DNA of 55,552 nucleotides from an uncultured Anaerolineales bacterium (GTDB taxonomy: Bacteria; Chloroflexota; Anaerolineae; Anaerolineales; UBA4823), in NCBI GenBank assembly GCA_903872065.1, contig CAIQJJ010000419.1:1-55552 (forward strand), written 5' to 3'. Of this stretch, positions 3,085 through 38,677 are shown one piece after another (within the stretch, counting starts at the first letter, position 1; each line of letters opens with the position of its first letter). A model generated the notes under the pieces. The model ran no database searches. It was not told where the DNA came from and worked only from the letters and a program-made list of their open reading frames with translations. The translations under genes were made by a program, and so were the position numbers.

Positions 3085-3663
<579 letters not shown>

Positions 3664-4884: not shown

Positions 4885-4891
4885 AGCGCGG

Positions 4892-5884: not shown

Positions 5885-5888
5885 AGCC

Positions 5889-15328: not shown

Positions 15329-18235
15329 TCAACCCTCACGTGTTGATTTCTCAAGAGTCTGCCACTGCACCCGCACAATCGCCCCATCGGCGTCGTTGGC
15401 GTAGCGAACAAGGATCGTCTGCCCTTCGGAGAGATAACTCGCTGCCAGCGCTTTCCCCAGGATAGTACACGCGCTGACGCGCTCAACCTGCCGGCCGGCG
15501 CTCCACAGGCGCGCCGCGCCCTCGCTGCCGGTGGGAGATTGGCTGAGAAAAACGACCGCGTCACTGCTCTCGACGTAGGCCCTCGTCCGCCCGGCGACCG
15601 CCAGCAGACGGGGCGTCGCGCCGCCCATCTGCGCTTCCAACCAAAAGGCGCATTCATGGGGCGAGACGGTGGGATTTTCCAGAACGGCCAGGTTGGAGGT
15701 GAGCAAATCAATGTAGCAGCCTTGCGCGTGGTAGGCTTGATCCAAGGCGCTGATGGCAGTGTAAGGGCCGCGCTGGATGCGAAAGTAGGGCTGTTCGCGG
15801 TAAATCGCGCCGCTCTTTTCATAGCCATATTTGGCCAGGGCGCTCAGCCAGCCCGCCCCCTGGGAAGAGACCGCCATGAAACGCGGGCTGACGCCAGCGA
15901 AGATCACCGTTCCCTGGCCGACTTTTGCCTCCCATATCAGTGGGGTTGCATCGTCCTTCAAATAATAGAGCGGCTGCGCCGCGGCCGGCGGTTCGTAGAA
16001 AATCGCCTGGCAGTATCCGCCGGACTGATCAGACAGCAGCACAATACTCCCTCCAGGCTGATGGCTCCGGTCTTGCGGTTTGCCGGCCGGAATGATCAAA
16101 GTTTCGTAACCGGGGAAGGCGATGCGGCTGTCCGCGTGCAGTTCCAGATCGTGATCCGCCGCCTGGATTAGCCTTTGGTTCTGCACAGGCAGCCCCAGGC
16201 GCTGCAGCAGGTCTTCGCCCGGCGAGGCAAAGCCGGCCAACCGCCACCAGCTATCTTGCAGCGCATTGTAGGCGTCTGCGCCGCCGAAGAAGAGCAGCGT
16301 CCCGCCGGCCTTCACCCAATCCGCCAGGGCCTGGTTCATTTGCGCCGAGGTCGGCTTGAGAAAATCGTAGCACACCAACAGCGCTCGATAGTCGTCCAAA
16401 TAGCCAGCTTCCGCGCTGCGATCCAGGGATAGCACCTGCAGCGGAATACCCTTAGCGATCAGAGGCAGGGTCAAGCCCCAAAAATCGTTGTAATCGCTGG
16501 GCGAGGGATCGTCACGCTGCCAACCCATCGAATCGGCGACAAAGGTAGCGATCCCCTGGCTGCCGAAGTCGCACTCCGCCGCGGGGTAACGCCACAGCTC
16601 ACACAATGCGCCCACCACCGTGTTGACCAGGGTCTCATATTCCTTGGGGACGCAGCCATAGATGCGATTGGGCCACACCAAAACCTCATAATTGTCCACA
16701 GCAGGAAACATTAAAGAGGCCACAATCGTGCGCACATAATTGCGGTGGTAATCTTCCATGGGCAGATTGGGCCGATCTTCCAACGGATCGTGCAGGAACC
16801 ACAGGCGCTTCCCCAGGCCGCGTGTCAACTGGTAGAAGGATGAGTATTCCAGGAAACCGACCTCAAAGGTGCGTTCGGCGACTTCTCCTGCCAGGGGAAC
16901 CGGGACGCGCGCCGTGCCGGTCCACACCTCGGCAATCACCTCCTGCACTTCGGGCATCATCACCATTTGATGGTGGCGGCAGGTAATATTGATCAGGTAG
17001 TAATTGATCGGGCTGTGCGCCGAGAGCAGGCGGGTGACAGATGGGCTGCGCCGCGCCACATCTTGCAAGATGGTCTGAATCTGGCGGGTAAAGAGGTGGC
17101 CCTTAAGCTGTTCCGCCTGGTACCTGGCGTCAATGCTGCTGTGCGGCGCTTGCCACGGCGTCCCGTAATACGCCAGCCATTCCTGCTTGAAAACGTCAGA
17201 GTAGCCGGAGTAAGTCCAAAATTCAGGCTCATCATAACCGAAGCCGGTCGCGCCGGCCTCGAGCGCTGCGGCATAGTGGCGGGCGGCGTACCCGTCGCGC
17301 GCCGGGTTGGGGACGCGATAATAGTCGCTGCAGCGCACCTCGAACGGCCCGCCGAAACGCCGCGCCACGTCCGCCTTCCATTCCTCCGTCACGAATGGCA
17401 CACTCAGATCGAGAGTCTTCTCGCCCTGCTGGGCGACATGCACCCCTAAAGTCCTCCCGTAACGGTCGCGCTGCACATCCGGCAGATCAGGCGTAATGGC
17501 TAAATCGCCGGCGAAGCGGCTGTGCAGCATGGTTTGGGCCTGGTAGCCTTTGGCCGCCCAGTTGGGAAACATGATCGGATCGTCGGTCGTAGCCCAAAAA
17601 TACAGGCGGACGGCGTCGGTCGGCAGCGCCATTGCTGGATCGTAACGCCAGGCATAGAAAAACGAAGTATGAGGCTGCGTGGGAATGGGCGCGATTTCGA
17701 TGCGATCTTCAGCCTGGCAGCCCATTAAGCCAGCAGCCCAATCGCTAATTCCATCTTGATTTCCATCATGAAATGGCAAAAGTAGATTAAAATAGCGTAC
17801 AGCAATACGCTCTTGTTTTGCCTGAAAGATGAAATGGATAGGGTCGCCTGGCGGATGGTATGTGGGGGTGGTGAAACTGACCGCATGGTGGATGCCTGTC
17901 TGTTCCAACGTGTAAACCAATGGTTTTCCTTCTGCATCAGTGATTCGAAAGTCAGGATCGCCTTCGGCTTGAAAGTTTAACCGGCAGGGCAGATTTGGCG
18001 GAACGACTACCCGCCACGTCCACCCGCCGCCCGGCTCTGCCAGACGCCAATGCTTTTCAACTGAACAACTTGAGGCCGCCGCGAGCGCCTCGGCTTCGGA
18101 TCGGGTTCCCGGGATGAGAAGGATGGTATGAACAAGAGTGGTTTTCATAGAAATAACCGTACAGTGCTTAAAACTTGCCTGTTCCTGACATATACTTTTG
18201 GTTGTAACGCACGGATTTTCATCAACGCTAAACAT
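15329..18235 (-). CDS. Large uncharacterised protein (968 aa), paralogue of 51141-53540; possible glycoside-hydrolase-like barrel plus GATase1-like C-terminal domain
   Basis: Long ORF with clear similarity to the 799-aa ORF at 51141-53540 (blocks DEPEFW..YG..WQ.P.SS.DARY, EVWTGT.R.P, RLW.L.DP.ED.PN, SAQ...AL..WV..G..L...G). The start is uncertain: 18235 or MKTTLVH at 18148, neither with a good SD. No obvious signal peptide. Confidence 0.75.
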   Translation of the reverse strand: MFSVDENPCVTTKSICQEQASFKHCTVISMKTTLVHTILLIPGTRSEAEALAAASSCSVEKHWRLAEPGGGWTWRVVVPPNLPCRLNFQAEGDPDFRITDAEGKPLVYTLEQTGIHHAVSFTTPTYHPPGDPIHFIFQAKQERIAVRYFNLLLPFHDGNQDGISDWAAGLMGCQAEDRIEIAPIPTQPHTSFFYAWRYDPAMALPTDAVRLYFWATTDDPIMFPNWAAKGYQAQTMLHSRFAGDLAITPDLPDVQRDRYGRTLGVHVAQQGEKTLDLSVPFVTEEWKADVARRFGGPFEVRCSDYYRVPNPARDGYAARHYAAALEAGATGFGYDEPEFWTYSGYSDVFKQEWLAYYGTPWQAPHSSIDARYQAEQLKGHLFTRQIQTILQDVARRSPSVTRLLSAHSPINYYLINITCRHHQMVMMPEVQEVIAEVWTGTARVPVPLAGEVAERTFEVGFLEYSSFYQLTRGLGKRLWFLHDPLEDRPNLPMEDYHRNYVRTIVASLMFPAVDNYEVLVWPNRIYGCVPKEYETLVNTVVGALCELWRYPAAECDFGSQGIATFVADSMGWQRDDPSPSDYNDFWGLTLPLIAKGIPLQVLSLDRSAEAGYLDDYRALLVCYDFLKPTSAQMNQALADWVKAGGTLLFFGGADAYNALQDSWWRLAGFASPGEDLLQRLGLPVQNQRLIQAADHDLELHADSRIAFPGYETLIIPAGKPQDRSHQPGGSIVLLSDQSGGYCQAIFYEPPAAAQPLYYLKDDATPLIWEAKVGQGTVIFAGVSPRFMAVSSQGAGWLSALAKYGYEKSGAIYREQPYFRIQRGPYTAISALDQAYHAQGCYIDLLTSNLAVLENPTVSPHECAFWLEAQMGGATPRLLAVAGRTRAYVESSDAVVFLSQSPTGSEGAARLWSAGRQVERVSACTILGKALAASYLSEGQTILVRYANDADGAIVRVQWQTLEKSTREG

Positions 18236-18257: not shown

Positions 18258-18330
18258 CATATTGTCAATATGTTTAGATGTATTGACATATTGACGTAGT
18301 ATTGAAATCATGTATACTTTTAAGTACACA
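18258..18330. promoter_or_regulatory. Divergent control region: palindromes plus a sigma70-like promoter for the GntR gene
   Basis: Perfect palindrome CATATTG-T-CAATATG at 18258-18272. Plus-strand promoter with -35 TTGACG at 18291-18296, a 16-nt spacer, and -10 TATACT at 18313-18318. Imperfect palindrome TGTATACTTTTAAGTACACA at 18311-18330 overlaps the -10. TATTGA is repeated three times at 18281-18306. Confidence 0.4.
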
Positions 18331-18454
18331 GTTTTGTGTGTTTAAAAGGCAGGATTCTTGACCATACCTGGCGCGGCAAAAGATTGCGCTTTTCTCATGC
18401 AGCAGAAAACCCAATTTGCGCTTGCTCCAGGTATATTACAAAAGGAGCCGCGAA

Positions 18455-19204
18455 ATGCCCATGGCTGAATTGACCCAAAATGGAGTTCCGTTTTATCATC
18501 AACTGAAGGAAATTTTCAGCGAGAAAATCGAAAATGGTGAATGGCGACCGGGCGAGACGATCCCCCCTGAGAACCAATTGTGTGAGATGTTCAATGTCAG
18601 CCGGGGACCGGTGCGCCAGGCGCTAGACATCCTGGTGCGGGATGGTCTGCTCTCGCGTAAGCAAGGCAAAGGGACGATCGTCCTGCCGCCGAAGATCGAA
18701 CGCGGGCTGGGGACGTTTTACAGCTTTACCACCTTGATCGAGCAAAAAGGGATGAACGCTTCGACCCAGATGTTGTCTTTTGAGACCGTCACTGCGCAGG
18801 GCAGCGTTGCCCGTTACCTGGAGATCCCCCCCGAAGAGCCGTTATTTAAGGTGCGGCGGCTGCGCTTGGCCAACGGCGAGCCGTTAATTTTAGAGGTGAT
18901 CTATATCCCCGCTTCGATTTGCGATTCACTGACCGCGGAAAAAATGTTGACCACGCCGCTTTATACCATTCTCTCCACCTGCTATGGAATTGTTCTGACC
19001 CGCGCCAAGCAGTTTTTTGAGCCGGTAGTCACGGACGAATACGAGTCGCAAAAGCTGGGCATCTCAAACGGCGCGCCGGCGCTGCTCATCCAAAACATTA
19101 CATATCGCTCAGATAACCGGCCGGTTGTATTGAGCAAGGCGATCATGCGCGGCGACCGCGTGCGCTATTATGTCGAACTAAGCGCCCAAATCAATGTCCC
19201 TTAA
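18455..19204 (+). CDS. GntR-family transcriptional regulator, HutC subfamily (wHTH plus UTRA domain)
   Basis: PFYHQLKEIFSEKIENGEWRPGETIPPENQLCEMFNVSRGPVRQALDILVRDGLLSRKQGKGT is a canonical GntR wHTH. The length and C-terminus fit a UTRA effector domain. Start set at MPMAEL (ATG 18455) with AAAGGAG 7 nt upstream. Confidence 0.9.
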   Translation: MPMAELTQNGVPFYHQLKEIFSEKIENGEWRPGETIPPENQLCEMFNVSRGPVRQALDILVRDGLLSRKQGKGTIVLPPKIERGLGTFYSFTTLIEQKGMNASTQMLSFETVTAQGSVARYLEIPPEEPLFKVRRLRLANGEPLILEVIYIPASICDSLTAEKMLTTPLYTILSTCYGIVLTRAKQFFEPVVTDEYESQKLGISNGAPALLIQNITYRSDNRPVVLSKAIMRGDRVRYYVELSAQINVP

Positions 19205-19254
19205 AAGACCGTCTTTACTTTGCAGTTAAATTTTCCCCACGATTGGAGTATTGC

Positions 19255-20232
19255 ATGGGAACAAACGAAATTGCTTTATATCAGACGATGGTTCTCATTC
19301 GCCGTTTTGAAGAGACCGTCAACGAGCTGTACATGCAGGGTCGCATTCCCTCCACCCTGCACCTGTACATCGGGCAGGAAGCGGTAGCAGCCGGCGTGTG
19401 CAGCGCCCTCAACCTGGATGATTACGTCTTGACCACCCACCGCCCGCATGGACACGCCCTGGCAAAGGGGGTCGAGGCGAAAGCGATCATGGCTGAACTT
19501 TTCGGCAAAGCCACCGGAACCTGCAAGGGCAAAGGCGGTTCGATGCACGTCGGCGATATCCGCGTGGGCGTTTTCCCGGCCATCGCGATCGTCGGCGGGA
19601 ATGTTCCGATTGCCGCCGGGGCGGCCCTCTCGGCAAAGATGATGAAGAACGGACGCGTGGCGGTCAGCTTCTTTGGCGACGGCGCAGCAAACGAGGGCGA
19701 TTGGCACGAGGCGATGAACGTCGCCGCGCTGTGGAAGCTGCCCATGCTCTTTGTTTGCGAAAATAACCTGTACGCCGCCTCGACGCCCTACAAAGCCGCT
19801 TTTAATATTGAGACGATCGCCAGGCGGGCTGATGCGTATGGCATGCCAGGCGTGGTGGTGGACGGCAACGATGTCCTCGCCGTCCATCGCGTTGCCCAAC
19901 AGGCGGTCGAGCGCGCCAGGGCTGGAGAGGGGCCGACGTTGATCGAGTGCCGCACCTACCGCCAATGCGGTCATTCGCGCTCTGATCCGCGCACCTACCG
20001 CACGCAGATCGAAGAAGCCGAGTGGAAGACCAAAGACCCGATTGTCAATTTCCGCAAATACCTGCTCGAAGAGCTGCATGTGGATGAAAACAGCCTGCGC
20101 CAGGTTGACGAAAAAGTTGAGGCGGACCTCCGTGAGGCCATCGCCTACGCCGACGCCAGCCCCCTGCCTGCTGCGGACGATCTGTATTCCGATGTCTACA
20201 CCCCCACATCCGAAGGAGGACGCCATGCCTAA
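19255..20232 (+). CDS. Thiamine-diphosphate-dependent dehydrogenase E1 component, alpha subunit (pyruvate/acetoin/branched-chain 2-oxoacid type)
   Basis: YIGQEAVAAGV, the GGNVPIAAGAALS...FFGDGAANEGDWHEAMN TPP-binding motif, and YRQCGHSRSD. GGAG lies 7 nt upstream of ATG 19255. Confidence 0.9.
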   Translation: MGTNEIALYQTMVLIRRFEETVNELYMQGRIPSTLHLYIGQEAVAAGVCSALNLDDYVLTTHRPHGHALAKGVEAKAIMAELFGKATGTCKGKGGSMHVGDIRVGVFPAIAIVGGNVPIAAGAALSAKMMKNGRVAVSFFGDGAANEGDWHEAMNVAALWKLPMLFVCENNLYAASTPYKAAFNIETIARRADAYGMPGVVVDGNDVLAVHRVAQQAVERARAGEGPTLIECRTYRQCGHSRSDPRTYRTQIEEAEWKTKDPIVNFRKYLLEELHVDENSLRQVDEKVEADLREAIAYADASPLPAADDLYSDVYTPTSEGGRHA

Positions 20233-21238
20233 GATGAGTATTGCCGAAGCGATCCGCCAGGGGATCCGCGAAGAAATGCGCCGCGATGCGCGTGTGTTCT
20301 GCCTGGGTGAAGATATCGGCATCCAGGGAGGTTTTGGCGGCGCTTTCACCGTCACCCTGGGTTTGTCTGAAGAATTTGGTCATGAACGCATTTTGGATAC
20401 CCCGATTTCGGAAGCGGCGATTGCTGGCCTGGCGATTGGGTCGGCGGTGTGCGGCATGCGCCCGATCGCGGATGTCCAATATGGCGATTTCTTGTTTGAG
20501 ATGATGGATCAGCTTGCCAACCAGGCCGCCAAACTGCGCTACATGTCCGGCGGCACCCTCTCGGTGCCAATGGTGATGCGCGCTCCGGTGGGAGCGACCG
20601 GGCGCGGCTCGCAGCACGCCCAAAGCCTGGAAGCATTCTTTACCCATGTACCTGGTTTGAAGGTGGTCTGCCCGGCCACCGCCTATGACGCCAAGGGGCT
20701 GCTCAAGGCCGCTGTGCGCGATGATGACCCGGTGTTGATTTTTGAGCATAAGCTGCTGTATGGCTCTAAAGGGGCGCGCAGCGAAAAAGGCGCTCTCAGC
20801 CCAATCGGCGAGGTGCCGGACGAAGATTATATTGTCCCGATCGGCGTCGGCGCTGTCCGGCGCACGGGCAAGGATGTCACAATCGTGGCCAACCTGCTCA
20901 TGCTCTATCGTTCCCTGGCGGCGGCGGAAACCCTGGCGCAAAAGGGCATCGAAGCGGAGGTGATTGACCCGCGCACGCTGGTGCCGCTCGACAAGAACTT
21001 GATTTTGGACTCGGTGCGCAAGACCGGGCGCTTGTTGATCGTGGAAGAGGACAACCTGACCAACGGCTGGGTGGCGGAAGTAGCAGCCTTGATGGCGGAT
21101 GAAGGGTTTGCCTGGCTCGACGCGCCGATCAAGCGCGTGGCCGCGCCGGATGTGCCGCCGCCTTTTGCCCCGCCGCTCGAAAGAGCGTATGTCCCCGATG
21201 AGCAGCGTATCGTGGACGCGGTCCTGTCTATGCTGTGA
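20225..21238 (+). CDS. E1 component beta subunit
   Basis: MPKMSIAEAIRQGIREEMRRDARVFCLGEDIG...DTPISEAAIAGLAIGSA is typical of E1-beta. Its ATG overlaps the alpha stop (ATGCCTAA, 8 nt). Confidence 0.9.
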   Translation: MPKMSIAEAIRQGIREEMRRDARVFCLGEDIGIQGGFGGAFTVTLGLSEEFGHERILDTPISEAAIAGLAIGSAVCGMRPIADVQYGDFLFEMMDQLANQAAKLRYMSGGTLSVPMVMRAPVGATGRGSQHAQSLEAFFTHVPGLKVVCPATAYDAKGLLKAAVRDDDPVLIFEHKLLYGSKGARSEKGALSPIGEVPDEDYIVPIGVGAVRRTGKDVTIVANLLMLYRSLAAAETLAQKGIEAEVIDPRTLVPLDKNLILDSVRKTGRLLIVEEDNLTNGWVAEVAALMADEGFAWLDAPIKRVAAPDVPPPFAPPLERAYVPDEQRIVDAVLSML

Positions 21239-21250
21239 GCAGGAGGCGCA

Positions 21251-22693
21251 ATGGCAACCCCAATTATTGTTCCTCCTCTCAGCCAGACAATGGACAGCCT
21301 GGTCTTTGTAACCTGGTTGAAGCAGGTCGGCGAGCGGGTGGAGAAGGGCGAACCTCTCTACCAGGTAGAAACGGATAAAGCTGTCCTGGATGTGGAAGCG
21401 CCGGCCGCCGGCATTGTGCAAGAAGCCTCGGCTGCGCCAGGCAGCGAAGTCCTGGTCAAGTCCACCATCGGCCTGATCGTCTCGCCGGCTGAACAAACCT
21501 CCGTCCAACCTGGCGCGGCGGCCTCGCCGCGCCAGAGTCGCATCTTTGCCAGCCCGCGCGCCCGCAACCTGGCCAAAGCTGAAAATGTCCCCCTGGGCGC
21601 TGTCCAGCCAAGCGGGCCGCAGGTGAAACTGCCGCACGTAACTGAAACACAGGCGATGATCGTCGAACGAGACGTGCGCGCATACGTGGAGCTTCAAAAG
21701 CAGCCGCCTGCGCCGCCGGAGAAGGCGCGGCCAGAGGCCGCCGAGAGGCCAGCCTCCAGGCCAGCCGAAGTGCGCGCCACCCCCCTGGCGCGGCGCGTGG
21801 CGCAAGCGACAGGCGTAGACCTGGAGACTGTGGCGCAGGCGCGCCAGGGGACGGTCATCCGGCGCGCCGATGTGGAAGGCGCCCTGCGCGGCGAGGCGGA
21901 GCCGCGCGCGCCGAAGGAGGCCGCAGCCGCCGCGCCGCCGCCGGTCGTGACGCCAACGCGCCTGGCCGGCAAAGGGCGGCCCGTGGCGCTCAGCGCCCTG
22001 CGCAAGACAATCGCCCGCCGCATGCAGGCCAGCCATCAGATCACTGCGCCGGTGACGTTGATGCGCGAAGTAGATGCGACCGAACTGGTCAACTTGCGCG
22101 CCAACATCTTGAACGAACTGCCGGCGGACGCTGGAGCGCCGCGCCCAACCTATACCGATTTCCTCATGGTCATCCTGGCGCACACCCTGCCGCGCCATCC
22201 CCATCTCAACGCCCTTTACCAGGACGAGGAGTTTGTGGTCTATGACGAAGTGCACCTGGCCCTGGCCATTGAAACCGAGCGCGGCCTGGTAGCGCCGGTC
22301 ATCCACGACCTGCTCCATAAGCCCCTGCTCGATCTGGCCGCGGCCCGCGTCCAACTGGCCGAGCGCGCCCACGCCGGAACGCTGGCGGCGGAAGAACTCA
22401 GCGGCGGAACCTTCACCCTGACCAATCTGGGCGCGCTGGGGATTGACGGCTTTACCCCACTGCTCAACCCGCCGCAGGTAGCCATCCTGGGCATGGGCCG
22501 CATCCGCCCTATCCCGGCGGTGGTCGCCGACCAGGTCAGCATTCGCCAGGTCATGACTTTATCCTTGACCTTCGATCACCGCCTGGTGGATGGCGCGCCG
22601 GCCGCCAAGTTTTTGCTGGACGTGGCCCAACTAGTGGAAAAGCCCTATTTGATCTGGTTAGCCAACTTTAAATCAGTCCCAGGAGAACGGTGA
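21251..22693 (+). CDS. Dihydrolipoamide acyltransferase E2 component
   Basis: Lipoyl domain with ETDKAVLDVEAP, Ala/Pro-rich linkers, two peripheral-subunit-binding-like segments, and a catalytic domain with LSLTFDHRLVDGAPAAKFL. Confidence 0.9.
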   Translation: MATPIIVPPLSQTMDSLVFVTWLKQVGERVEKGEPLYQVETDKAVLDVEAPAAGIVQEASAAPGSEVLVKSTIGLIVSPAEQTSVQPGAAASPRQSRIFASPRARNLAKAENVPLGAVQPSGPQVKLPHVTETQAMIVERDVRAYVELQKQPPAPPEKARPEAAERPASRPAEVRATPLARRVAQATGVDLETVAQARQGTVIRRADVEGALRGEAEPRAPKEAAAAAPPPVVTPTRLAGKGRPVALSALRKTIARRMQASHQITAPVTLMREVDATELVNLRANILNELPADAGAPRPTYTDFLMVILAHTLPRHPHLNALYQDEEFVVYDEVHLALAIETERGLVAPVIHDLLHKPLLDLAAARVQLAERAHAGTLAAEELSGGTFTLTNLGALGIDGFTPLLNPPQVAILGMGRIRPIPAVVADQVSIRQVMTLSLTFDHRLVDGAPAAKFLLDVAQLVEKPYLIWLANFKSVPGER

Positions 22694-23769
22694 TGAAAAG
22701 AGATCGTGTGCGTCAAGAAGGGGCGCGGATTCAAGATCAGATCAAGTTTCGCGGTTTCGAGGCCCTGATCTTAGAAAACCGCTGGCTGCGTGTGCTGATC
22801 TCGCCGGAAAAAGGGTCAGACATCCTCGAACTGGTCTACAAACCGTTGGATCTGGACCTCTTATGGCGCGCCCCGGCCGGGTTTTGGCAATTGGAACAGC
22901 CCTACGCAGCCGATGTGACCATCCGCCGCTCTTTCATTGATTGTTATCCAGGCGGCTGGCAGGAAATCCTGCCCAACGGCGGGCCCGGCTGCGTCTACCA
23001 GGGCGCGCCCTTTGATGAGCATGGCGAAACCCCCTTGCTGCCCTGGAGCTGCCAGATCATCGAAGATGAACCGCAAAGCGTCGCCGTTCGCCTCACGACG
23101 CGCACCCTGCGCGCCCCGCTGCGGATCGAGAAGATCGTGCGCCTTAAGGAAGACTCGGCTTTATCGTTCCAGGAAAGCGTTACCAACCTGGGCGTGGAGC
23201 CTGTGGCGGCCATGTGGGGGCATCACCCTGCCCTGGGCGCGCCGCTGATTGACCAGGGCTGCTGGATTGACCTGCCCGAATGCCGCGGCGTCGCCCATCC
23301 GGTTGAGCGTTTTCCGACCCAGCGCCTGGCCCCTGACCAGGCTTTTACCTGGCCTCTTGCGCCAGGCCGATATGGTGGTACGATAGATTTGAGTCGTGTG
23401 CAAGCGCCGCACGCCGGCAGCGCCGACCTGGTTTACCTGACCGACCTATCCGAAGGCTGGTGCGCGGTGACCAATCCCAGGCTTCAGGTCAGTTTTGGCA
23501 TGGCCTGGACGCAGGAGACTTTCCGCCACCTGTGGATATGGCACGACGCCAATGGTACAAGCGGCTATCCCTGGTATGGGCAGGGCTATGTGCTGGCGTT
23601 AGAGCCGTGGAGCAGCTATCCGAGCATGGGATTGGCAGAAGCGGTCGCCAGAAATACCCACCTTCTCTTGCAGCCCGGCGAGACGCGGCGCGCGGAATTG
23701 ACGGCGGCCGTTGCGCCAAACGCCCAACGCGTGCGCCAGGTGTCACTGGCCGGCCAGATCAAAGTTTAA
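22693..23769 (+). CDS. Aldose-1-epimerase-like (galactose mutarotase fold, DUF4432-like) protein
   Basis: FEALILENRWLRVLISPEKGSDILELVYKP..DLLWRAP and the overall length resemble DUF4432/mutarotase-like proteins. The ATG overlaps the E2 stop (TGATG), and AGGAGA lies 6 nt upstream. Confidence 0.65.
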   Translation: MKRDRVRQEGARIQDQIKFRGFEALILENRWLRVLISPEKGSDILELVYKPLDLDLLWRAPAGFWQLEQPYAADVTIRRSFIDCYPGGWQEILPNGGPGCVYQGAPFDEHGETPLLPWSCQIIEDEPQSVAVRLTTRTLRAPLRIEKIVRLKEDSALSFQESVTNLGVEPVAAMWGHHPALGAPLIDQGCWIDLPECRGVAHPVERFPTQRLAPDQAFTWPLAPGRYGGTIDLSRVQAPHAGSADLVYLTDLSEGWCAVTNPRLQVSFGMAWTQETFRHLWIWHDANGTSGYPWYGQGYVLALEPWSSYPSMGLAEAVARNTHLLLQPGETRRAELTAAVAPNAQRVRQVSLAGQIKV

Positions 23770-23789: not shown

Positions 23790-26033
23790 ATGAGCGAAAT
23801 GATCCTTGAAGAACATAAAATCAACGCCAGTGAAGCAATTGTGACCAGCGAGGCGGTCATCAAAGCCCCGCCGAAGTTCATTCAATCGCCGCGCATCCAA
23901 AAATTGGCGCAGCGCAGCCGCGAACTGGCGATCAGCGGCAAACGCCGCCTGGGGTCGCCTGAAATGCCCCTGGGCGATCACGCTTGCTGGATTGACATTG
24001 GGCCTTTTCCTGATCGCGATCAAATGCCCTCCAGGGTCAATGGCTACGAGGCCAGCGGCGAAAGCTGGGGGCGCGATTATGCCTTTCTGGTGGATCATTT
24101 CCCGGTGGATATCTACGAAAATGAGCGCATTGTCGGCGAAATCCATTGGGAGATGCACATGGTGCGGCAGTATGTCTGGCCGCAAAGCGTGCTAAAAGTG
24201 GGCGAGTGGGCGTCAGAGTTGGGCGCCAGCGGGTTCAGCAGCGGTCACACCTGCCCCGACCTGGCCATTGGCCTGGAGCAGGGTTGGGGCGGCATTTTGG
24301 AGCGCATCAAGCGCAGCCGCGCCAAATACCTGGAGCTTGACAATCAAGCCAGGGCCTCTTATCTGCATGGTTTAGAGATGATCTGCGAGTCGGTGATCGG
24401 CTTCATTCAGCGCCATGCCGAGAAAGCCCGCCAACTGGCGCAAGATGAAAGCGACCCCTGGCAAAAACAGACCTATTTGCGCGTCGCCGAATGCTGCGCG
24501 CACATCGCCACGCAGCCTCCGCGCACGTATTATGAAGGCGTGCAGTGGATCCACTTCGCCGTCATGCTCGATCGGGTGGTCGGTCATGGCAATGGCTATG
24601 GGCGGCTCGATCTGTATTTGATTGACCTGTACCGCAAGAGCCGCGCCACCGGCGAGTTAAGCGATGAGGAGGCGCGTGAATATCTATCCGAGATGTTCCT
24701 CAAGCTGCGCGGCCAGTTCTTCAGCCTGGGCGGGCGAGATGCGCAGTTGAACGACGCCACCAACGAGATGAGCTTTGTTGTGCTGGAAGCGTATGACCTG
24801 ATCGGCGACTACAACAACCTGGGCGTGATGTGGCATACCGATATTAACCGCGAGTTTTATAACTACGCCTGCGATGTGCTGGCGCGGCACGGCGAAAGCA
24901 TTCCCGTCCTGGTCAACTACGATCTGATGCGCGAAGCGGAACTGCGCTCCGGTGTGCCGGAAGAGGACGCCTGGCGAGTGGTCTACAGCGGCTGCCAGTG
25001 GTTCTGCATCCCCGGCAAGGAGTACTGCGATCAAGATGTCAATTCGATCAATCTGCTCGTCCCGATGCAGCGCACGATTGCGGCCGCGATCGAGCAGCAG
25101 GCCGCCGATTTCGAGACCTTCTACACCCTCTTTGAAGAAGAACTGACCATCACCGCCCGCGCCCTGCGCACCTGGAAGAACAGCCAGTATGAATTCTTGG
25201 GCAGCCTGTGGCCTGAAATGTTCACCTCGATGAACAGTCACGGGCCTATTGAGCGCGGCATAGACATGGTGGATCAGCGCGGGGTGGATTACCAGTACAC
25301 CTCGGTCAACATTTTAGGCATTCCGAATGTGGCCGATTCGTTCCATGCCATCAGGAAACTGGTCTTTGAACAGAAGCGCTATCCTCTGGCCGAGGTGCAA
25401 GAAGCCGTCGCGACCAACTGGGCCGGACGCGAAGTCATGCGCCAGCGCTTCCTCAACCAGGACAAGTTCGGCAACGATCTGGATGAGGTGGATGCCTTGT
25501 TCGTGCGCGTGACCGAGTCCCTGGCGCGCATCTTGGGCAGTATGGTCAACCTGCGCGGGCAAGAATTTCGCGCCTCGCTCTTTCACTTCCAGGGCCATCT
25601 CACCCCGGAGAGGATCGGGGCGACGCCGGATGGCCGCCTGGCGCAGGAATACCTGGCGCATGGCATCAACCCACAGGTCGGGCGCAACCTGACCGGCCTG
25701 CTGGCTACCGCCAACTCCATCGCCAAGGTCGATCAGCGTAAGTTCCAGGGCGGGACGATGCAGGTTGAGCTGCAGCCGAAGTTCTTTGATGGCAAAGAAG
25801 AAATCTGGAAATACATCCGCGACTTTTCGGACGTTTTCTTCAGAAAGGGCGGCATTCAGATCAATCTCAACATTATGGACTTGAAGAAGCTGCAAGACGC
25901 CATGGATCACCCCGAAAACCCCGCCTACCAAAATATCATCGTGCGCGTGACGGGCTACGCCAGCCGCTTCATTTGCCTGTCGCACGCTTACCAGAAAGAA
26001 TTTGTCGCCCGGATGAATTACGAAGGATTGTAA
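23790..26033 (+). CDS. Glycyl radical enzyme homologue (PFL2/glycerol-dehydratase-like family), substrate unknown
   Basis: C-terminal glycyl-radical motif IIVRVTGYASRF. The PFL-like core reads PRTYYEGVQWIHFAVML...GYGRLDLYLIDLY...FSLGGRD...NEMSFVVLEA. The Cys loop reads YSGCQWFCIPGK. Confidence 0.85.
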   Translation: MSEMILEEHKINASEAIVTSEAVIKAPPKFIQSPRIQKLAQRSRELAISGKRRLGSPEMPLGDHACWIDIGPFPDRDQMPSRVNGYEASGESWGRDYAFLVDHFPVDIYENERIVGEIHWEMHMVRQYVWPQSVLKVGEWASELGASGFSSGHTCPDLAIGLEQGWGGILERIKRSRAKYLELDNQARASYLHGLEMICESVIGFIQRHAEKARQLAQDESDPWQKQTYLRVAECCAHIATQPPRTYYEGVQWIHFAVMLDRVVGHGNGYGRLDLYLIDLYRKSRATGELSDEEAREYLSEMFLKLRGQFFSLGGRDAQLNDATNEMSFVVLEAYDLIGDYNNLGVMWHTDINREFYNYACDVLARHGESIPVLVNYDLMREAELRSGVPEEDAWRVVYSGCQWFCIPGKEYCDQDVNSINLLVPMQRTIAAAIEQQAADFETFYTLFEEELTITARALRTWKNSQYEFLGSLWPEMFTSMNSHGPIERGIDMVDQRGVDYQYTSVNILGIPNVADSFHAIRKLVFEQKRYPLAEVQEAVATNWAGREVMRQRFLNQDKFGNDLDEVDALFVRVTESLARILGSMVNLRGQEFRASLFHFQGHLTPERIGATPDGRLAQEYLAHGINPQVGRNLTGLLATANSIAKVDQRKFQGGTMQVELQPKFFDGKEEIWKYIRDFSDVFFRKGGIQINLNIMDLKKLQDAMDHPENPAYQNIIVRVTGYASRFICLSHAYQKEFVARMNYEGL

Positions 26034-26068: not shown

Positions 26069-26103
26069 CCATTGCGCAGACTGCCGGGCAGTCTGCGCAA
26101 TGG
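26069..26103. terminator. Perfect 15-bp hairpin between convergent genes (bidirectional terminator candidate)
   Basis: CCATTGCGCAGACTG ccggg CAGTCTGCGCAATGG lies 36 nt after the GRE stop and 37 nt after the DUF4404 stop on the other strand. The T tracts are weak. Confidence 0.5.
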
Positions 26104-26490: not shown

Positions 26491-27582
26491 TCATCCCTGC
26501 TGGCAGATTTCACTCAACCGTTTCATGAAGTAGCCGTAATTGGCAAAAGAAATATCCGGCGGGCAGCTATGGTCGGTGTGCGGGATGTAGCCGCCGGCCA
26601 GCATCAAGGGCCTGACGCGCGCCAGTTCTTCCTCGATGGCGGCCGGCCCCTGCGCCAGGGCGCGCTTGTCAACGCCTCCCCACAGGCGCAGATCGCGGCC
26701 ATACTTCTGGCGCACCGCCAGCACATCCATGCCGGCCTGGACTTCAAAGGGATAGAGGAAGTTCAAACCAGCATCCAGCCAGACCGGGATTAAGGGGTCG
26801 ATCTGCCCGTCGCTGTCCAGCCCGATATGCCGGACGCCGCGCGCGCGCAGGTAGTCTACCACCCGCCGGTAGCGGGGCAGCATGTACCGCCGCGCCATGG
26901 CCGGGGAGATGAGCGGCCCGGACTTATAGCCCATATCCTCCCAAAAGATGAAGGCGTCAATTTCGATCACATCCAGGATTTGCGCCATCATGGCAATGAT
27001 GAAATCGGCGTTGGCGTCCATCATTTCTTCCAAAAAGGCCGGGTCATCGTAGAACAGCAGGCACAGCTTTTCTACCCCGACCATGTTGCGCAGCGGCCCA
27101 AAGAAACCGCCCCACCGGTCAGAGATAACTCCCAGTGGGATTGGCTCCGCCCGCAACTGCTGAAGCTGCGCGCGCCAATCCGGCCCGATGCGCTGCGCCA
27201 GGTCCGGCTGCATCCGTTCGCGCCAGAAGGAGCGAAATTCAGCGCGGTCTTCCACCGGGAATTTCAAAAATTGAGGCATCGAACTCATCGGTTGGTCTTT
27301 GCGCTCTTTCATCAAAATGCCCTCGTGGTTGTAGTAGATGATGTAGCGATCATCTTCGCTCACCACGCGATGCTCGAACGGCGGCTGGGGGAAAAACCAG
27401 TGGCCGAAAAAGTTGCGCCGGTCGGCCAGTACCGCCGGGTCATTGACGCCGGGTTGGTAGCCCTCTTGTTTCCAGCGCTCGATCGTTTCCGGCCAACCTC
27501 CCCAATCCCAGAAAGGTACCTGGTCAACAGGTTTGTAGTCCATGCACGCGTGAAAGCGTTGCAAAGCCGTCATTGAAGCCAT
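26491..27582 (-). CDS. URO-D superfamily protein, 'DSDG' subtype, function unknown
   Basis: MTALQRFHACMDYKPVDQVPFW..., IFWEDMGYKSGPLISP, and GLDSDGQIDPLIPVWLDAGLNFLYPFEVQAG. Clear paralogue of 31588-32691. AAGGAGA SD. Confidence 0.8.
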   Translation of the reverse strand: MASMTALQRFHACMDYKPVDQVPFWDWGGWPETIERWKQEGYQPGVNDPAVLADRRNFFGHWFFPQPPFEHRVVSEDDRYIIYYNHEGILMKERKDQPMSSMPQFLKFPVEDRAEFRSFWRERMQPDLAQRIGPDWRAQLQQLRAEPIPLGVISDRWGGFFGPLRNMVGVEKLCLLFYDDPAFLEEMMDANADFIIAMMAQILDVIEIDAFIFWEDMGYKSGPLISPAMARRYMLPRYRRVVDYLRARGVRHIGLDSDGQIDPLIPVWLDAGLNFLYPFEVQAGMDVLAVRQKYGRDLRLWGGVDKRALAQGPAAIEEELARVRPLMLAGGYIPHTDHSCPPDISFANYGYFMKRLSEICQQG

Positions 27583-31587: not shown

Positions 31588-32691
31588 ATGAATCATCGTG
31601 AACGTTTCCTGGCGGCGATGGATTTTCGCCGGCCCGACCGCCCCTGTCACCTCGAACACGGCTTTTGGAATGAAACCTTTCAACGCTGGCGCGGCGAAGG
31701 TCTGCCGCCCGAGGTGATTTTACCCGAACTGTTCTTTCACTCGCCGCGCAACGATCTGTTTGGCTATTTCGATGTAGCCAAGATCGCTTACGTGTCGGTC
31801 GAACAGTATTACGTCCCCGCCTTCCCTGAAGAAGTCCTCTCGCTGACCGCCGATGAGCGCTTATGGCGCAATTCGCATGGGGTGCTGCTGCGCGAACGGT
31901 TGAGCAATGTTTCGATGCCCCAATTCCTGGACTACCCGATTAAAAACCGGCAGGATTACGAAGTCTATCGCCCCCGCCTGACTGGTTCGCCCGAAAAGCG
32001 CTATCGCGCCGATTGGGCGGAGCAGATGCGCTTCATCAGCGGGCAAGACCGGGATATTGTGGCGACGCACATGGAGGGATTCTTCGGCTATCCGCGTGAA
32101 CTGCTGGGCGTGGAAAACTTGCTGACGATGTTCTACGACGACCCGGCCCTGATGCACCGGATCATTGATGATCACCTGGAACTGCTCTTGACGCTCTATG
32201 AGCCTGCGATCCGTGACCTGCGGCCTGACTTCGCCTTTATCTGGGAGGATATGTGCTACAAAAACGGGCCGCTGATCGCGCCGCGCACGTTTCGCGCGTT
32301 TCTGCTGCCGGCGTACCAGAAGTTGACCCGCTTTCTCAAGCAAATGGGGGTCAAAAATATTATCGTGGACAGCGACGGCAATGTCGAAAAGCTGATCCCG
32401 CTCTGGCTGGAGGGCGGCGTCACTGGTCTGCTGCCGTTTGAGGTCAAAGCGGGCGGGGATGTGCTGAAGATCAGAAAGCAGTATCCGCAGTTGCAGATCA
32501 TTGGCGGGGTTGAAAAGCACTGCCTGGAGCATGGCCGAACCGAAATTGACGCCGAACTTGCGCGTGTTTTGCCAGGGATGCTGGCGCAGGGAGGTTACGG
32601 TGTGGCGCTGGATCATTGGGTGCATGACGCGATTCCGCTAGAGAATTTCCGCTATTATGTTGAACGGGTAAAAGATTGGAATATGCCGTGA
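31588..32691 (+). CDS. URO-D superfamily protein, 'DSDG' subtype, function unknown
   Basis: MNHRERFLAAMDFRRPDRP..., FIWEDMCYKNGPLIAP, and VDSDGNVEKLIPLWLEGGVTGLLPFEVKAG. Paralogue of 26491-27582. Confidence 0.8.
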   Translation: MNHRERFLAAMDFRRPDRPCHLEHGFWNETFQRWRGEGLPPEVILPELFFHSPRNDLFGYFDVAKIAYVSVEQYYVPAFPEEVLSLTADERLWRNSHGVLLRERLSNVSMPQFLDYPIKNRQDYEVYRPRLTGSPEKRYRADWAEQMRFISGQDRDIVATHMEGFFGYPRELLGVENLLTMFYDDPALMHRIIDDHLELLLTLYEPAIRDLRPDFAFIWEDMCYKNGPLIAPRTFRAFLLPAYQKLTRFLKQMGVKNIIVDSDGNVEKLIPLWLEGGVTGLLPFEVKAGGDVLKIRKQYPQLQIIGGVEKHCLEHGRTEIDAELARVLPGMLAQGGYGVALDHWVHDAIPLENFRYYVERVKDWNMP

Positions 32692-35594: not shown

Positions 35595-35696
35595 TTCGGC
35601 GCTTCGACAAGCCACGCTTCGACAGGCTCAGCGCGCCTGTCCGCACGATAGGCATCCTGAGCTTGTCGAAGGATGGTTGAAGGATGGTCGAAGGAT
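35594..35696. repeat. Composite REP-like unit (reverse orientation), near-identical to 32757-32841
   Basis: ATTCGGCGCTTCGACAAGCCACGCTTCGACAGGCTCAGCGCGCCTG...GATAGGCATCCTGAGCTTGTCGAAGGATGGTTGAAGGATGGTCGAAGGAT. Confidence 0.85.
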
Positions 35697-35708
35697 ATAG
35701 GAGTAAAA

Positions 35709-36500
35709 GTGTTCCGTATCGCGGTTGTTCAACAAGACCACAACCCGGGGCAGCCAGAGCAAAACCGGCAAAAAGCATTGGCCGCCGCGTCCAACGCACT
35801 GGCCGAGGGCGCAGAACTCATCCTCTTCCACGAGGAGCTTTTGTTGGGTTACACCGCCGGCGTGCGGGAGCTTGCCGAGCCGCTGAATGGCCCGACCTCG
35901 CGCGCCTTTCAAACCCTTTTGCAGGGGAGTGAGTCGCTCATTGTCTATGGCCTCACCGAACGCGACGGGGAAGACCTGTACATCACCGCGCCGGTGGTCT
36001 CTGCCAGGGGTGTGCTGACCCGGTATCGGAAAACGCACCTTTGGTGGCGCGCCAGCGGACTCAGGCACGAACCCACCTTTTACCGCCCCGGCGACAGGCT
36101 GGTGAGCTTCCGCTTCAAAGATCACCGGATCGGAATCATGATTTGCTATGATGGGGATTTTCCAGAGATGACGCGTTCCTACGCCAACCTGGGCTGCTCG
36201 CTGCTCCTCTGGCTGAACAACCGCGGCAGCCGCGGCCATGCCGAGGTCAGGGATCTCGCCTGGCGTAACTCGATGGTGATCGCCGCCTCCTGCTGCTGCG
36301 GCGTGGATGAAGCCGGCAACCTCTGCCGCGGCGGAAGCAATCTCACCGGCGCGGACGGGGCGTTGTTGGGCGAAATTTGGGATCGCGAGGGCATGATCCT
36401 CGTGGATGTAGATTTAGATGAAGCGCTCCAGTCACGCCAGCAGAATCCCTGGTACCGCGGTCGAAGGCCGGAACTTTATGTGACGACCACAGACACTTGA
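35709..36500 (+). CDS. Carbon-nitrogen hydrolase (nitrilase superfamily) protein
   Basis: FRIAVVQQ..., ELILFHEE (catalytic Glu), YRKTHLW (Lys) and IMICYDGDFPE (Cys) form the E-K-C triad. Start proposed at GTG 35709 with AGGAG 5 nt upstream. The track start at 35673 lies in repeat DNA. Confidence 0.8.
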   Translation: MFRIAVVQQDHNPGQPEQNRQKALAAASNALAEGAELILFHEELLLGYTAGVRELAEPLNGPTSRAFQTLLQGSESLIVYGLTERDGEDLYITAPVVSARGVLTRYRKTHLWWRASGLRHEPTFYRPGDRLVSFRFKDHRIGIMICYDGDFPEMTRSYANLGCSLLLWLNNRGSRGHAEVRDLAWRNSMVIAASCCCGVDEAGNLCRGGSNLTGADGALLGEIWDREGMILVDVDLDEALQSRQQNPWYRGRRPELYVTTTDT

Positions 36501-36509
36501 AAGGTAAAA

Positions 36510-38657
36510 ATGCCTGATACTCCCTCATCTTCCATATTTCCTTTTTCGACAGACCTCAGCCTTTTCGCCGTCGCGCGCCTGTCGCCAGAGACTCACCGCC
36601 TGGCCGACCGCGCCCGGCAGGGCCAGGTGGGGCGGTATATGCGCCCGGCAGATTTTCAACTGGACGCAGCGGCGCAACTCACCTCCCCCGACCTGCAATA
36701 CGCGGCCGCGGTGCGTTTAATCGCCGAGCGCGCCCCGCTGAACATCACCCCCGGCGAACACCTGGCAGGATCGGCCACCCTCTCCGAAGCCCGCCGTCAT
36801 ATCACGCCGCTCCTGGGTGTTGGCAGCACCAGCCACACAACCCCCGGCTTTGACCAGGCGCTCAAAACAGGCTATCGTGGACTGCGGGTGCGGGTTGAGG
36901 CGCGCCTGCAGCGGAATGACCTGGAAGCGCGTGGACGAGACTTTCTGCAAGCCATGCTCATCTGCCTGGAAGCGGCAGATGCCTGGCATGAGCGCTACAT
37001 GCGGACATTGGATGAGTGCATTACCAGCCGGCCGGCGGACGATCCAGACGCCGTTGTGTACCGGCGCGTGCGCCAGGCGTTGGCCAATGTGCCGGAAAAC
37101 CCGCCGGCCAACTTTGCCGAAGCCGTCCAATCGCTGTGGTTCATCTTTGCCTTCCAGCGTTTGTGCGGCAACTGGCCCGGCCTGGGCCGGATCGATCAGA
37201 TGCTTGGCCCTTATTTGCAGGCTGACCTGGCGGCCAATGCCATCACACTGGATGAGGCCCGCGAACTGCTGGCCCACTTCTGGATCAAGGGGTGTGAGTG
37301 GACAGACGGAACCTCCAACGGCAGCGGGGATGCGCAGTATTACCAGAACATCATCCTCTCTGGGGTGGATGCGGAGGACGTGGACGTTACGAATGAGGTC
37401 ACTTACCTGGTGTTGGATGTGATCGAAGAGTTAGGCATCAGCGACTTTCCCGTGGCGGTGCGCGTCTCGCGGCGCACGCCGGAGCGGCTTTGGCGGCGAA
37501 TTGCCGAGGTGCAGCGGCGCGGCGGCGGTACGGTGGCTATTTATAATGAAGACCTGGTCATCCGCTCCATGCACCAGTTTGGCTATCCCCTGGGCGAAGC
37601 GCGCCAGTTTACCAACGATGGCTGCTGGGAGACGCTGATCCCTGGTAAGACCAACTTTCTTTATTGGCCGTTCGATATCCTGGCGCTGCTGCAGCAAGTC
37701 TTGGGAGTGAACCAGCCTGAACAGCCTGTCGCCGATTACCCAACCTTCGAAGCGCTGTACCAGGCTTTTCGCCAACGCCTGGAGCGCCAGATCAGCGACA
37801 TGCACACCGCCGCTGACCGTCACGCCCTGGATGGCCCGCCAGCGCCATTGATCTCGCTCTTGGTGGAGGGCTGCATTGAAAACGCCCGCGGCTATCATCA
37901 GCGCGGCCCGCAGTATACCGTCTTTGCCTTTCACGCTGGCGGCTTGCCGGATGTCGCCAATGCGCTGCTGGCGCTGCGTCGCGTGGTCTATGAGGAAAAA
38001 CGCCTCACACTGCCTGAACTGGCGGCAGTGCTGCGCCAGGATTGGGCCGGCCAGGACGTGCTGCGCCAGTGGATCCGCCGCCATATCACTTTCTATGGCA
38101 ATGGCGACGCGGCGGCGGATGAGATGGCGCGCCGTGTGTTCGATGATTTCACCGCCCTGGTCGGTCAGATTCCCGAACGAAACGGCGTCAAACGCCCGGC
38201 CGGGTTGAGCACCTTTGGCCGTCAGATCGAATGGGCCGCGCAGCGCGGGGCCACCGCCGCCGGCGCTCACCGCGGCGAATACCTGTCCAATAATTTCTCA
38301 CCCACCCCAGGCAGTGAGAAGAACAGCCTGACCGGGGTGATCCACTCGTTTTGCAGTGTGGATTTTATGAAGCTGCCCAATGGAACGGCCCTGGACATCA
38401 AAATCCATCCCAGCAGCTTGCAAGGCGAGGATGGGCTGGCGGCGCTGGTCGGGGTGATGAAATCGTTCGTTGAATTGGGCGGCTGGTTCATGCACATTGA
38501 TGTGGTGGACAGCACAGTGCTGCGCGAGGCACAGCTTCATCCTGAACGGTACACAGACCTGGCCGTGCGCATCTCAGGCTGGTCGGCGCGCTTTGTGACC
38601 CTCTCGGCGGAGTGGCAAGAGATGATCATCCGCCGCACCGAGCAAGAATTTCGTTAA
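36510..38657 (+). CDS. Glycyl radical enzyme homologue (PFL2/dehydratase-like family), substrate unknown
   Basis: Glycyl-radical motif LAVRISGWSARF, Cys loop NDGCWETLIPGK (canonical G-C-x-E), and PANFAEAVQSLWFIFAF...GRIDQMLGPYL. 715 aa. Confidence 0.85.
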   Translation: MPDTPSSSIFPFSTDLSLFAVARLSPETHRLADRARQGQVGRYMRPADFQLDAAAQLTSPDLQYAAAVRLIAERAPLNITPGEHLAGSATLSEARRHITPLLGVGSTSHTTPGFDQALKTGYRGLRVRVEARLQRNDLEARGRDFLQAMLICLEAADAWHERYMRTLDECITSRPADDPDAVVYRRVRQALANVPENPPANFAEAVQSLWFIFAFQRLCGNWPGLGRIDQMLGPYLQADLAANAITLDEARELLAHFWIKGCEWTDGTSNGSGDAQYYQNIILSGVDAEDVDVTNEVTYLVLDVIEELGISDFPVAVRVSRRTPERLWRRIAEVQRRGGGTVAIYNEDLVIRSMHQFGYPLGEARQFTNDGCWETLIPGKTNFLYWPFDILALLQQVLGVNQPEQPVADYPTFEALYQAFRQRLERQISDMHTAADRHALDGPPAPLISLLVEGCIENARGYHQRGPQYTVFAFHAGGLPDVANALLALRRVVYEEKRLTLPELAAVLRQDWAGQDVLRQWIRRHITFYGNGDAAADEMARRVFDDFTALVGQIPERNGVKRPAGLSTFGRQIEWAAQRGATAAGAHRGEYLSNNFSPTPGSEKNSLTGVIHSFCSVDFMKLPNGTALDIKIHPSSLQGEDGLAALVGVMKSFVELGGWFMHIDVVDSTVLREAQLHPERYTDLAVRISGWSARFVTLSAEWQEMIIRRTEQEFR

Positions 38658-38677
38658 GCAGCCTTCTCAGAAACCTC

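Follow-up and report, generated by a model that had tools for sequence, protein, structure and literature searches.

A 55,552-bp contig from the metagenome-assembled genome (MAG) of an uncultured Anaerolineales bacterium, analysed over its whole length and called the window here, encodes a glycyl-radical enzyme (GRE) of 747 aa, GRE1, in which Trp takes the place of the Glu of the G-C-x-E Cys loop. GRE1 is a genuine member of the GRE superfamily, within its division related to pyruvate formate-lyase (PFL), and on sequence comparison it falls in no characterised GRE clade. It is probably the catalytic subunit of an activase-dependent GRE of a C-x-W clade, acting on a sugar-derived substrate, with C-O cleavage as the likely step. 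The proposal of the original prediction, a GRE chemistry of a new kind with a substrate derived from sugar, is a reasonable hypothesis.

The GRE1 protein and the C-x-W clade

GRE1 matches the Pfam families PFL-like (PF02901, 2.1e-88) and Gly_radical (PF01228, 1.2e-17), and the translation of its open reading frame (ORF) contains YSGCQWFC and IIVRVTGYASRF, in agreement with the original call of a 747-aa GRE homologue that retains the radical Gly. The residues and loops referred to throughout are as follows.

23790..26033, + strand: GRE1, 747 aa, glycyl-radical enzyme of the C-x-W/RVTG clade
24246..24248, + strand: codon of His153, aligned with the conserved His of a 'GH' pair in propanediol dehydratase (PD), PflD and YbiW
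24987..25016, + strand: Cys finger loop S400-G-C402-Q-W404-F-C406-I-P-G409, placed by alignments and model, with C402 as the catalytic Cys
25035..25037, + strand: codon of Asp416, aligned with the Asp of 'HD' in PD and PflD
25215..25217, + strand: codon of Glu476 (W-P-E), a clade-specific invariant acid
25944..25958, + strand: Gly loop R719-V-T721-G722-Y723, with G722 as the radical site and T721 clade-specific

His153 is presumably the equivalent of His164 in glycerol dehydratase (GD). The register of the Cys loop was taken from three independent alignments: phmmer against PDB chains 8id0, 5i2a and 8yjo, MAFFT L-INS-i with PflD, YbiW and PflB of E. coli, and MAFFT with 145 representatives. 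In all three, G-C402-Q-W404 stands opposite G-C-x-E without a gap, and the register originally drawn by eye is therefore correct: W404 occupies the position of the Glu in eliminase and isomerase GREs, no Glu is present there, and the loop reads C402-Q-W404 in place of their C-x-E. C402 aligns with Cys419 of PflB and with the catalytic Cys of PflD and YbiW. The second Cys, C406, lies four residues past the first, as had been seen, and there is no adjacent CC. At the other end of the protein RVTG722Y aligns with RVAGY and RVSGY (MAFFT) and the radical Gly is intact; an AARE-type replacement of this Gly by Ala, Ser or Thr was not found, Gly722 being present in GRE1 and invariant in its orthologues.

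A first AlphaFold2 (AF2) model, built on a 23-sequence alignment, gave pLDDT values below 50 in both the Cys and the Gly loop and was therefore discarded for loop inference. The second, built on 95 sequences from two C-x-W families, has a pLDDT of 88.9 and a pTM of 0.90. Both radical residues lie at hairpin tips in it, C402 between strands 398-399 and 405-406 and G722 between strands 717-720 and 723-726, in keeping with their assignment from the alignments. Compared with the PDB by Foldseek, the model reaches TM scores of 0.81-0.83 to PD, GD, PflD, CutC and HypD, at 18-23% identity.

No named GRE family takes in the protein. Against NCBIfam no equivalog cut-off is reached (HypD, CutC, HpsG/HpfG, IAD, HPAD, PFL and PflD-type models); the highest score, 282 bits, is to the generic subfamily PFL2-3, which has its cut-off at 678, and the top equivalog, NF007437, scores 225 bits against 1109. 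Identity is ~27% to E. coli PflD and YbiW and 23% to PflB (MAFFT). Solved structures rank almost evenly at the top when searched with a profile of the clade (PflD 367, PD 358, GD 352 bits), and the X-succinate synthases score below the dehydratases when GRE1 is searched with phmmer (BSS 101 bits, MASS 144 bits); no accessory subunit genes of such synthases were seen in the GRE neighbourhoods. The missing equivalog, the low identity to PflD/YbiW and the flat PDB rankings bear out the original placement of GRE1 outside the characterised clades. No paper on the clade was found in the literature, no curated NCBIfam model covers it and no solved structure belongs to it. A review of June 2026, which lists all characterised GREs, describes nothing like it (PMC13450708), nor is there anything on it in the 2024 AARE paper. 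The same review points out that entire GRE clades are still without validation (PMC13450708).

A search of 5.8 billion proteins gave 120 homologues among the matches listed, at 58-86% identity, from Anaerolineae/Chloroflexota, Lentisphaerae/Victivallales, Oscillospiraceae, Verrucomicrobiae and others. Across these 120, SGCQW and R[VI]TGY are essentially invariant, and the radical Gly is kept in every one. With the register correct, GRE1 outside the characterised clades and the Gly retained in orthologues, none of the three findings that the original prediction named as refuting it has been made. When 1.84 billion representatives (50% identity) were scanned exhaustively with HMMER, 4,562 of them matched; the scores drop in steps (927, 660, 585, 488 bits) before levelling off at 200-320 bits. 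C-x-W is carried by 23 full-length proteins out of the nearest ~145 representatives, at identities down to ~27%. Other positions follow the loop. The Thr before the radical Gly (RVTG) is found in 22 of the 23 C-x-W representatives and in 6 of 101 with C-x-E, Asp at position 416 in 100% against 14%, and Glu at position 476 in 100% against 3%; W166 also co-varies with C-x-W.

Beyond this range, a profile of distant C-x-W members matches 1,446 or more protein clusters (90% identity, E <= 1e-20). Its top 118 full-length matches all combine GC[HN]W with RVTG[FY] (117 with RVTGF, one with RVTGY), and the databases name distant members only as 'formate acetyltransferase' or 'PFL family'. Between the two C-x-W families, at 25-29% mutual identity, H153, C402, W404, E411, D416, E476, T721 and G722 are invariant. 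Since the loop is kept over such a distance, the non-canonical C-x-W motif is, as far as these alignments reach, the signature of a large clade of PFL2-like GREs, for which G-C-x-W, R-V-T-G, D416 and E476 together provide a diagnostic. The second Cys, the other feature stressed at the outset, has a narrower range: C406, like C413, is conserved within the family of GRE1, although some orthologues have Ser in its place, and it is absent from most C-x-W subfamilies. C406 was for these reasons rejected as a PFL-like second catalytic Cys characteristic of the clade.

Two observations concern the orthologues themselves. Identities of ~80% to GRE1 are found in Chloroflexota, in Lentisphaerae/Victivallales and in an Oscillospiraceae MAG (L007, L008, L010 and L036), which is unusually high across phyla and suggests, on sequence grounds, horizontal transfer of a GRE-activase cassette. 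Three MAG loci (L016, L057, L066) have the GRE divided over two ORFs, most likely through frameshift errors rather than as a genuine tandem pair.

The activase and the operon of GRE1

The original prediction reported that no radical-SAM activase signature occurs in the 55 kb, and three kinds of search agree. CxxxCxxC is present in no frame of at least 80 aa in the window (one occurrence lies in a 40-aa off-frame segment), tblastn with three activases of the family gives no match there, and an activase profile hidden Markov model run on the window with filters off has a best E of 2.6, compared with 59 strong matches in control loci. All of these searches cover one entire MAG contig, and the result is therefore silent on the rest of the genome.

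The further implication, that the enzyme lacks an activase, is not supported and does not apply to the family. All 61 orthologue loci with enough flanking sequence (58 non-redundant) encode a radical-SAM activase next to the GRE and on its strand, downstream in 57 loci and mostly within 100 nt; the protein has ~320-330 aa, with ferredoxin-like inserts. The six orthologue loci that lack it end less than 720 nt past the GRE. Three of three distant C-x-W loci also have an adjoining activase, and one protein of the clade (P0366, 1054 aa) carries Radical_SAM, Fer4, PFL-like and Gly_radical domains in a single polypeptide, a natural activase-GRE fusion. A second (P0143, 1052 aa) is assumed to be a similar fusion, to judge by how long it is and where in it the GRE match lies.

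Gene order around GRE1 is identical in contigs of two sister MAGs, ERZ1426840 (36,770 bp) and ERZ1426665 (17,892 bp), and the activase of GRE1 may be encoded elsewhere in the MAG, on another contig. The missing neighbour appears to be a lineage-level gene arrangement, not a property of the enzyme, because a second GRE of the window and its relatives also lack an adjacent activase and because E. coli provides a precedent: TdcE is activated in trans by PflA (PMC13450708), and TdcE/GrcA shows that a functional GRE gene need not adjoin its activase. For this second enzyme, GRE2 (see below), no activase was found on this contig, nor within 8 kb on either side in the two distant GRE2-family loci sampled (both on long contigs), which suggests that in these phyla the activase genes are located in trans. 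TdcE itself has the Gly loop and chemistry of PFL. The Gly loops of GRE1 (RVTGY) and GRE2 (RISGW) differ, so a single shared activase is not assured.

GRE1 is the last gene of a tight operon, with gaps or overlaps of -8 to +39 nt between consecutive genes.

18283..18318, + strand: two sigma-70-like promoter matches that overlap each other, in the divergent intergenic region before the regulator gene (10/12 consensus positions each, by pattern only)
18416..19204, + strand: GntR/HutC-type regulator, first gene of the operon (Pfam UTRA 4e-39, GntR 1e-20)
19243..20232, + strand: E1 alpha, thiamine pyrophosphate (TPP)-dependent, of pyruvate/acetoin-dehydrogenase type (Pfam E1_dh 3.7e-90)
20225..21238, + strand: E1 beta (Pfam Transket_pyr and Transketolase_C; NF006667 344 bits, above the cut-off of 321)
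21251..22693, + strand: E2 lipoyl acyltransferase (Pfam 2-oxoacid_dh 7e-72, E3_binding, Biotin_lipoyl)
22690..23769, + strand: DUF4432 protein (Pfam DUF4432 4.5e-17), its start overlapping the E2 stop
26069..26103: perfect hairpin of 16 bp, between GRE1 and the DUF4404 gene convergent with it

The ATG of E1 beta gives an 8-nt overlap with the end of E1 alpha, is preceded by GAAGGAGG, and agrees with a 337-aa gene call in the sister MAGs. E1 alpha falls just short of TIGR03182 (380 bits, cut-off 393.85), and no NCBIfam equivalog is reached by the regulator. The DUF4432 protein has no NCBIfam family and no match among solved structures; its earlier description as 'mutarotase-like' would go back to the Pfam clan of DUF4432, and a relaxed Pfam scan gave no link to Aldose_epim. 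The region of the hairpin folds with -50 kcal/mol over 96 nt (z = -6.1), marking the likely end of the operon, and the contig-wide searches found no activase gene or remnant past it.

In principle GRE1 could be a relic in this lineage, non-functional or independent of a radical, having lost its activase on moving into the E1/E2 operon. The contig without an activase or remnant, the hairpin directly after the stop codon and the retention of the activase at every other orthologue locus with enough flank are what such a history would leave behind. But GRE1 has the family residue at all 134 invariant columns and at all 275 columns with a conservation of at least 95%, while the leave-one-out median of other members is 2 deviations; it is therefore not decaying. 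The arrangement is moreover stable in three MAG contigs of differing sequence, the genes of the operon are tightly coupled in translation, and the lack of an activase beside GRE2 and its distant relatives suggests trans-encoded activases. A relic is accordingly considered very improbable.

The dehydrogenase genes raise another explanation, a formate-lyase-like acyl transfer from pyruvate or another 2-oxoacid, with C402 and C406 in the roles of Cys419 and Cys418 of PFL. Co-transcription with E1 alpha-beta and E2 of pyruvate-dehydrogenase type, a Cys loop that holds two Cys, and the database name 'formate acetyltransferase' would all suit this. Two Cys on the Cys loop are known only in PFL and TdcE, however, where the pair is adjacent (PMC13450708), while GRE1 has C-x-x-x-C, with a second Cys, C406, that gives way to Ser in some orthologues and is not kept clade-wide. 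With the PFL model TIGR01255 the score is 88.8 bits, where the cut-off is 994, and E1/E2 are missing from all other loci, which are linked to sugars. With so much against it, an acyl-transfer reaction is hardly to be expected.

Sugar-linked neighbourhoods and the proposed reaction

The original description of the setting, with a GntR/UTRA regulator, E1/E2, a DUF4432 protein and an Opp-type ABC importer (SBP_bac_5), is correct for the window. As a guide to the pathway of the family it fails: none of 68 orthologue loci has a match to E1 alpha, E2, DUF4432, GntR/UTRA, DUF4404 or URO-D, and the E1/E2/DUF4432 context of GRE1 is found in three MAG contigs, the window and its two sisters. Being confined to one lineage, these genes cannot define the pathway of the family. 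The link with carbohydrates that had been drawn stands, and the survey of orthologue neighbourhoods that the prediction called for gives it a broader basis. In 59 non-redundant loci the activase is the only constant partner, and sugar genes recur:

L-rhamnose mutarotase (RhaM), often immediately upstream: 9 loci
FucI/AraA-superfamily isomerases: 12 loci, in four phyla
split transketolase: 9 loci, including an 86%-identical Anaerolineae locus
cytoplasmic beta-helix protein: 8 loci
aldose-1-epimerase: 7 loci
methylglyoxal synthase: 6 loci

Further neighbours are GH29/GH95 fucosidases, GH31, GH35, GH106, PfkB kinases and a mandelate-racemase-type dehydratase, and the transporters near the GRE are of CUT1, TRAP, MFS and SDF type. 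A marker of fucose or rhamnose type is present in 18 of the 59 loci. Around distant C-x-W GREs are GFO/IDH/MocA oxidoreductases, 3-keto-disaccharide hydrolases, xylose-isomerase-like TIM barrels, URO-D-like proteins, GH3, GH20 and GH130, and several of these families occur in the window too. A carbohydrate context of the GRE1 family is thus documented.

Two of these neighbourhoods have features of their own. The beta-helix protein, right-handed and of ~580-690 aa, is found in Clostridia loci (L018, L020, L022-L024, L039, L054, L056), encoded on the same strand and upstream of the GRE in seven of the eight and abutting it in six. In five loci (L006, L008, L048, L060, L064) the C-x-W GRE is adjoined by a C-x-E GRE that is 29-35% identical to PflD/YbiW, and in L060 the two stand in tandem upstream of a single activase; such pairs suggest that one pathway includes two radical steps or that the two GREs share an activase.

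The reaction proposed for GRE1 begins with a radical-SAM activase, encoded elsewhere in the MAG, which would install the radical on G722. This would pass to C402 as a thiyl radical, and the thiyl would take a hydrogen atom from the substrate, a sugar or a compound derived from one; the contexts of the wider family point to 6-deoxyhexoses of the L-fucose or L-rhamnose type or their ketose isomers. C-O cleavage of the substrate radical, by dehydration or ring opening, appears most likely, with assistance from His153 and Asp416, and is favoured because these two residues are retained from dehydratases and isomerases. The role of the C-x-E Glu as a base would be dispensable, or might be assumed by one of the clade-invariant acids D416, E411 and E476. 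Of these, E476 is an attractive candidate for a relocated general base in view of its distribution (100% against 3%). For W404, stacking against the sugar ring is plausible. The product would probably be a deoxy-keto compound, passed on to a TPP-dependent enzyme for C-C cleavage, which could be the co-transcribed E1 alpha-beta/E2 in this lineage and the split transketolase in others.

Nearest to GRE1 among solved structures by sequence are PflD and YbiW (206 bits with GRE1, 367 with the clade profile), which open the rings of 1,5-anhydromannitol-6-P and 1,5-anhydroglucitol-6-P (PDB 8ID0, 8YJO, 8ID7). Their fold is close to the model (TM 0.81-0.82), they act on sugar substrates, and they share with GRE1 the 'GH' His and an Asp ~14 residues past the Cys. 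They differ in keeping C-x-E, with a Glu that hydrogen-bonds the C2-OH of the substrate and is the proposed base, in having RVAG in place of RVTG, and in their linked PTS and aldolase genes, which are not associated with the GRE1 family. An anhydro-sugar isomerase of PflD/YbiW type was rejected as an assignment for GRE1, which lacks the Glu and shares only 27% identity with these enzymes; the neighbouring mutarotases, too, argue for reducing sugars. The B12-independent glycerol and 1,2-propanediol dehydratases (PDB 1R8W, 5I2A/5I2G) are the top fold matches (TM 0.81), with sequence scores nearly equal to those of PflD, and have the conserved His and Asp in common with GRE1. Their proposed mechanism needs the CXE Glu (PMC13450708), which GRE1 lacks. 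Propanediol dehydratase acts downstream of fucose and rhamnose inside bacterial microcompartments, whereas no shell-protein Pfam occurs in the window or in the Pfam-annotated orthologue and distant C-x-W loci.

With the canonical base missing, a non-elimination reaction stays a serious rival. Within the same class of GREs, it might take the form of epimerisation or isomerisation by a hydrogen-atom-transfer (HAT) relay, perhaps through C406 or C413, of decarboxylation of Kolbe or HAT type, or of C-C scission. All GRE eliminases and the three isomerases characterised so far keep CXE, with the Glu bonded to the substrate, and a loop without Glu is known from phenylacetate decarboxylase (PAD/PhdB), where Cys482 is followed by Gln484 and a Trp is essential (PMC13450708). 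The conservation of C406 and C413 within the family points the same way, as do the carboxylate transporters (TRAP DctM, SDF) and the mandelate-racemase-type dehydratase at some loci. On the other side, His153 and Asp416, common to dehydratases and isomerases, are retained and invariant, C406 is not conserved clade-wide, and the nearest relatives in sequence and fold are dehydratases and isomerases, if by small margins. PAD/PhdB is an aryl-acetate decarboxylase from a non-carbohydrate context, and the decarboxylase models score low on GRE1 (IAD 187 bits against 1100, HPAD 129 against 1150), which has no GRE decarboxylase small-subunit gene adjoining it. On balance a non-elimination reaction is unlikely, though decidedly less so than an acyl transfer or a relic.

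Several points weigh against C-O cleavage of a sugar by an activated GRE1. The Glu on which the eliminase and isomerase mechanism relies (PMC13450708) is missing, and a different type of reaction in the C-x-W clade is quite possible. E476 lies between helices in the AF2 model, not on a barrel strand. No activase is found on this contig. The neighbourhoods of the orthologues are heterogeneous, and many of the loci with RhaM, isomerase or transketolase genes come from related Oscillospiraceae and therefore do not count as independent. E1/E2/DUF4432 are absent from every other orthologue locus, and their functional link to GRE1 is one of operon structure alone. What is known of the clade comes from sequences, gene context and models, and its monophyly is inferred from the co-variation of motifs among the nearest ~150 representatives.

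Allowing for these points, a sugar-directed C-O cleavage remains the preferred reading. A wider proposal can be made more tentatively, namely that the C-x-W/RVTG clade might form a new functional class of GREs on unphosphorylated sugars, such as 6-deoxyhexoses of L-fucose or L-rhamnose type or their ketoses, with an apparatus of Trp404, Asp416 and Glu476 instead of the Glu of the Cys loop, that feeds TPP-dependent C-C cleavage. If so, it would represent an ATP-sparing anaerobic route for sugars, widespread in Oscillospiraceae and Bacteroidales of the gut and in environmental Chloroflexota, Lentisphaerota and Verrucomicrobiota. A new chemistry would mean a further, radical step in the anaerobic breakdown of sugars by gut and sediment microbiomes, and would show a GRE active site working without the Cys-loop glutamate. 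Past discoveries of GREs have revealed unexpected anaerobic chemistry in the metabolism of choline, hydroxyproline, isethionate and anhydro-sugars. At least one host is in culture (Anaerotruncus massiliensis), and natural pairs of GRE and activase genes are there to be used for reconstitution.

Other genes of the window

The second GRE of the window, which the original prediction did not mention, has canonical loops.

36510-38657, + strand: GRE2, 715 aa, with the loops GCWE and RISGW, not assigned to any equivalog

It lies between a carbon-nitrogen hydrolase gene (35673-36500) and a gene of the fatty-acid-CoA-ligase family (38612-40381). Its family is large, with members in Chloroflexota, Armatimonadota and Hydrogenedentes, some of which have LamG-type insertions.

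Divergently upstream of the GRE1 operon, a 968-aa protein (15329-18235, -) has a weak match to DUF4350, and the gene is kept in this position in the sister MAGs. Three proteins have no Pfam match: 51141-53540 (+, 799 aa), 53559-54590 (+, 343 aa) and 40414-40995 (+, 193 aa). Four URO-D-like paralogues are found among the sugar genes of the window (3685-5001, -; 6757-7938, -; 26491-27582, -; 31588-32691, +). The one scanned against NCBIfam, at 26491-27582, has only a weak match to MtaA/CmuA methyltransferases. A URO-D gene also lies directly downstream of a distant C-x-W GRE (L073, 10372-11466).

The region of 3085-3630 (-), 4892-5938 (-) and 5889-6836 (-) in the window holds a lyxose-isomerase-like cupin and a class II aldolase. 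This cupin and aldolase cluster with genes that precede the GRE operon at two loci from Acutalibacteraceae MAGs (L032, L042), and PfkB kinases recur near the GRE in other loci; cupin, aldolase and PfkB may represent a shared auxiliary sugar module.

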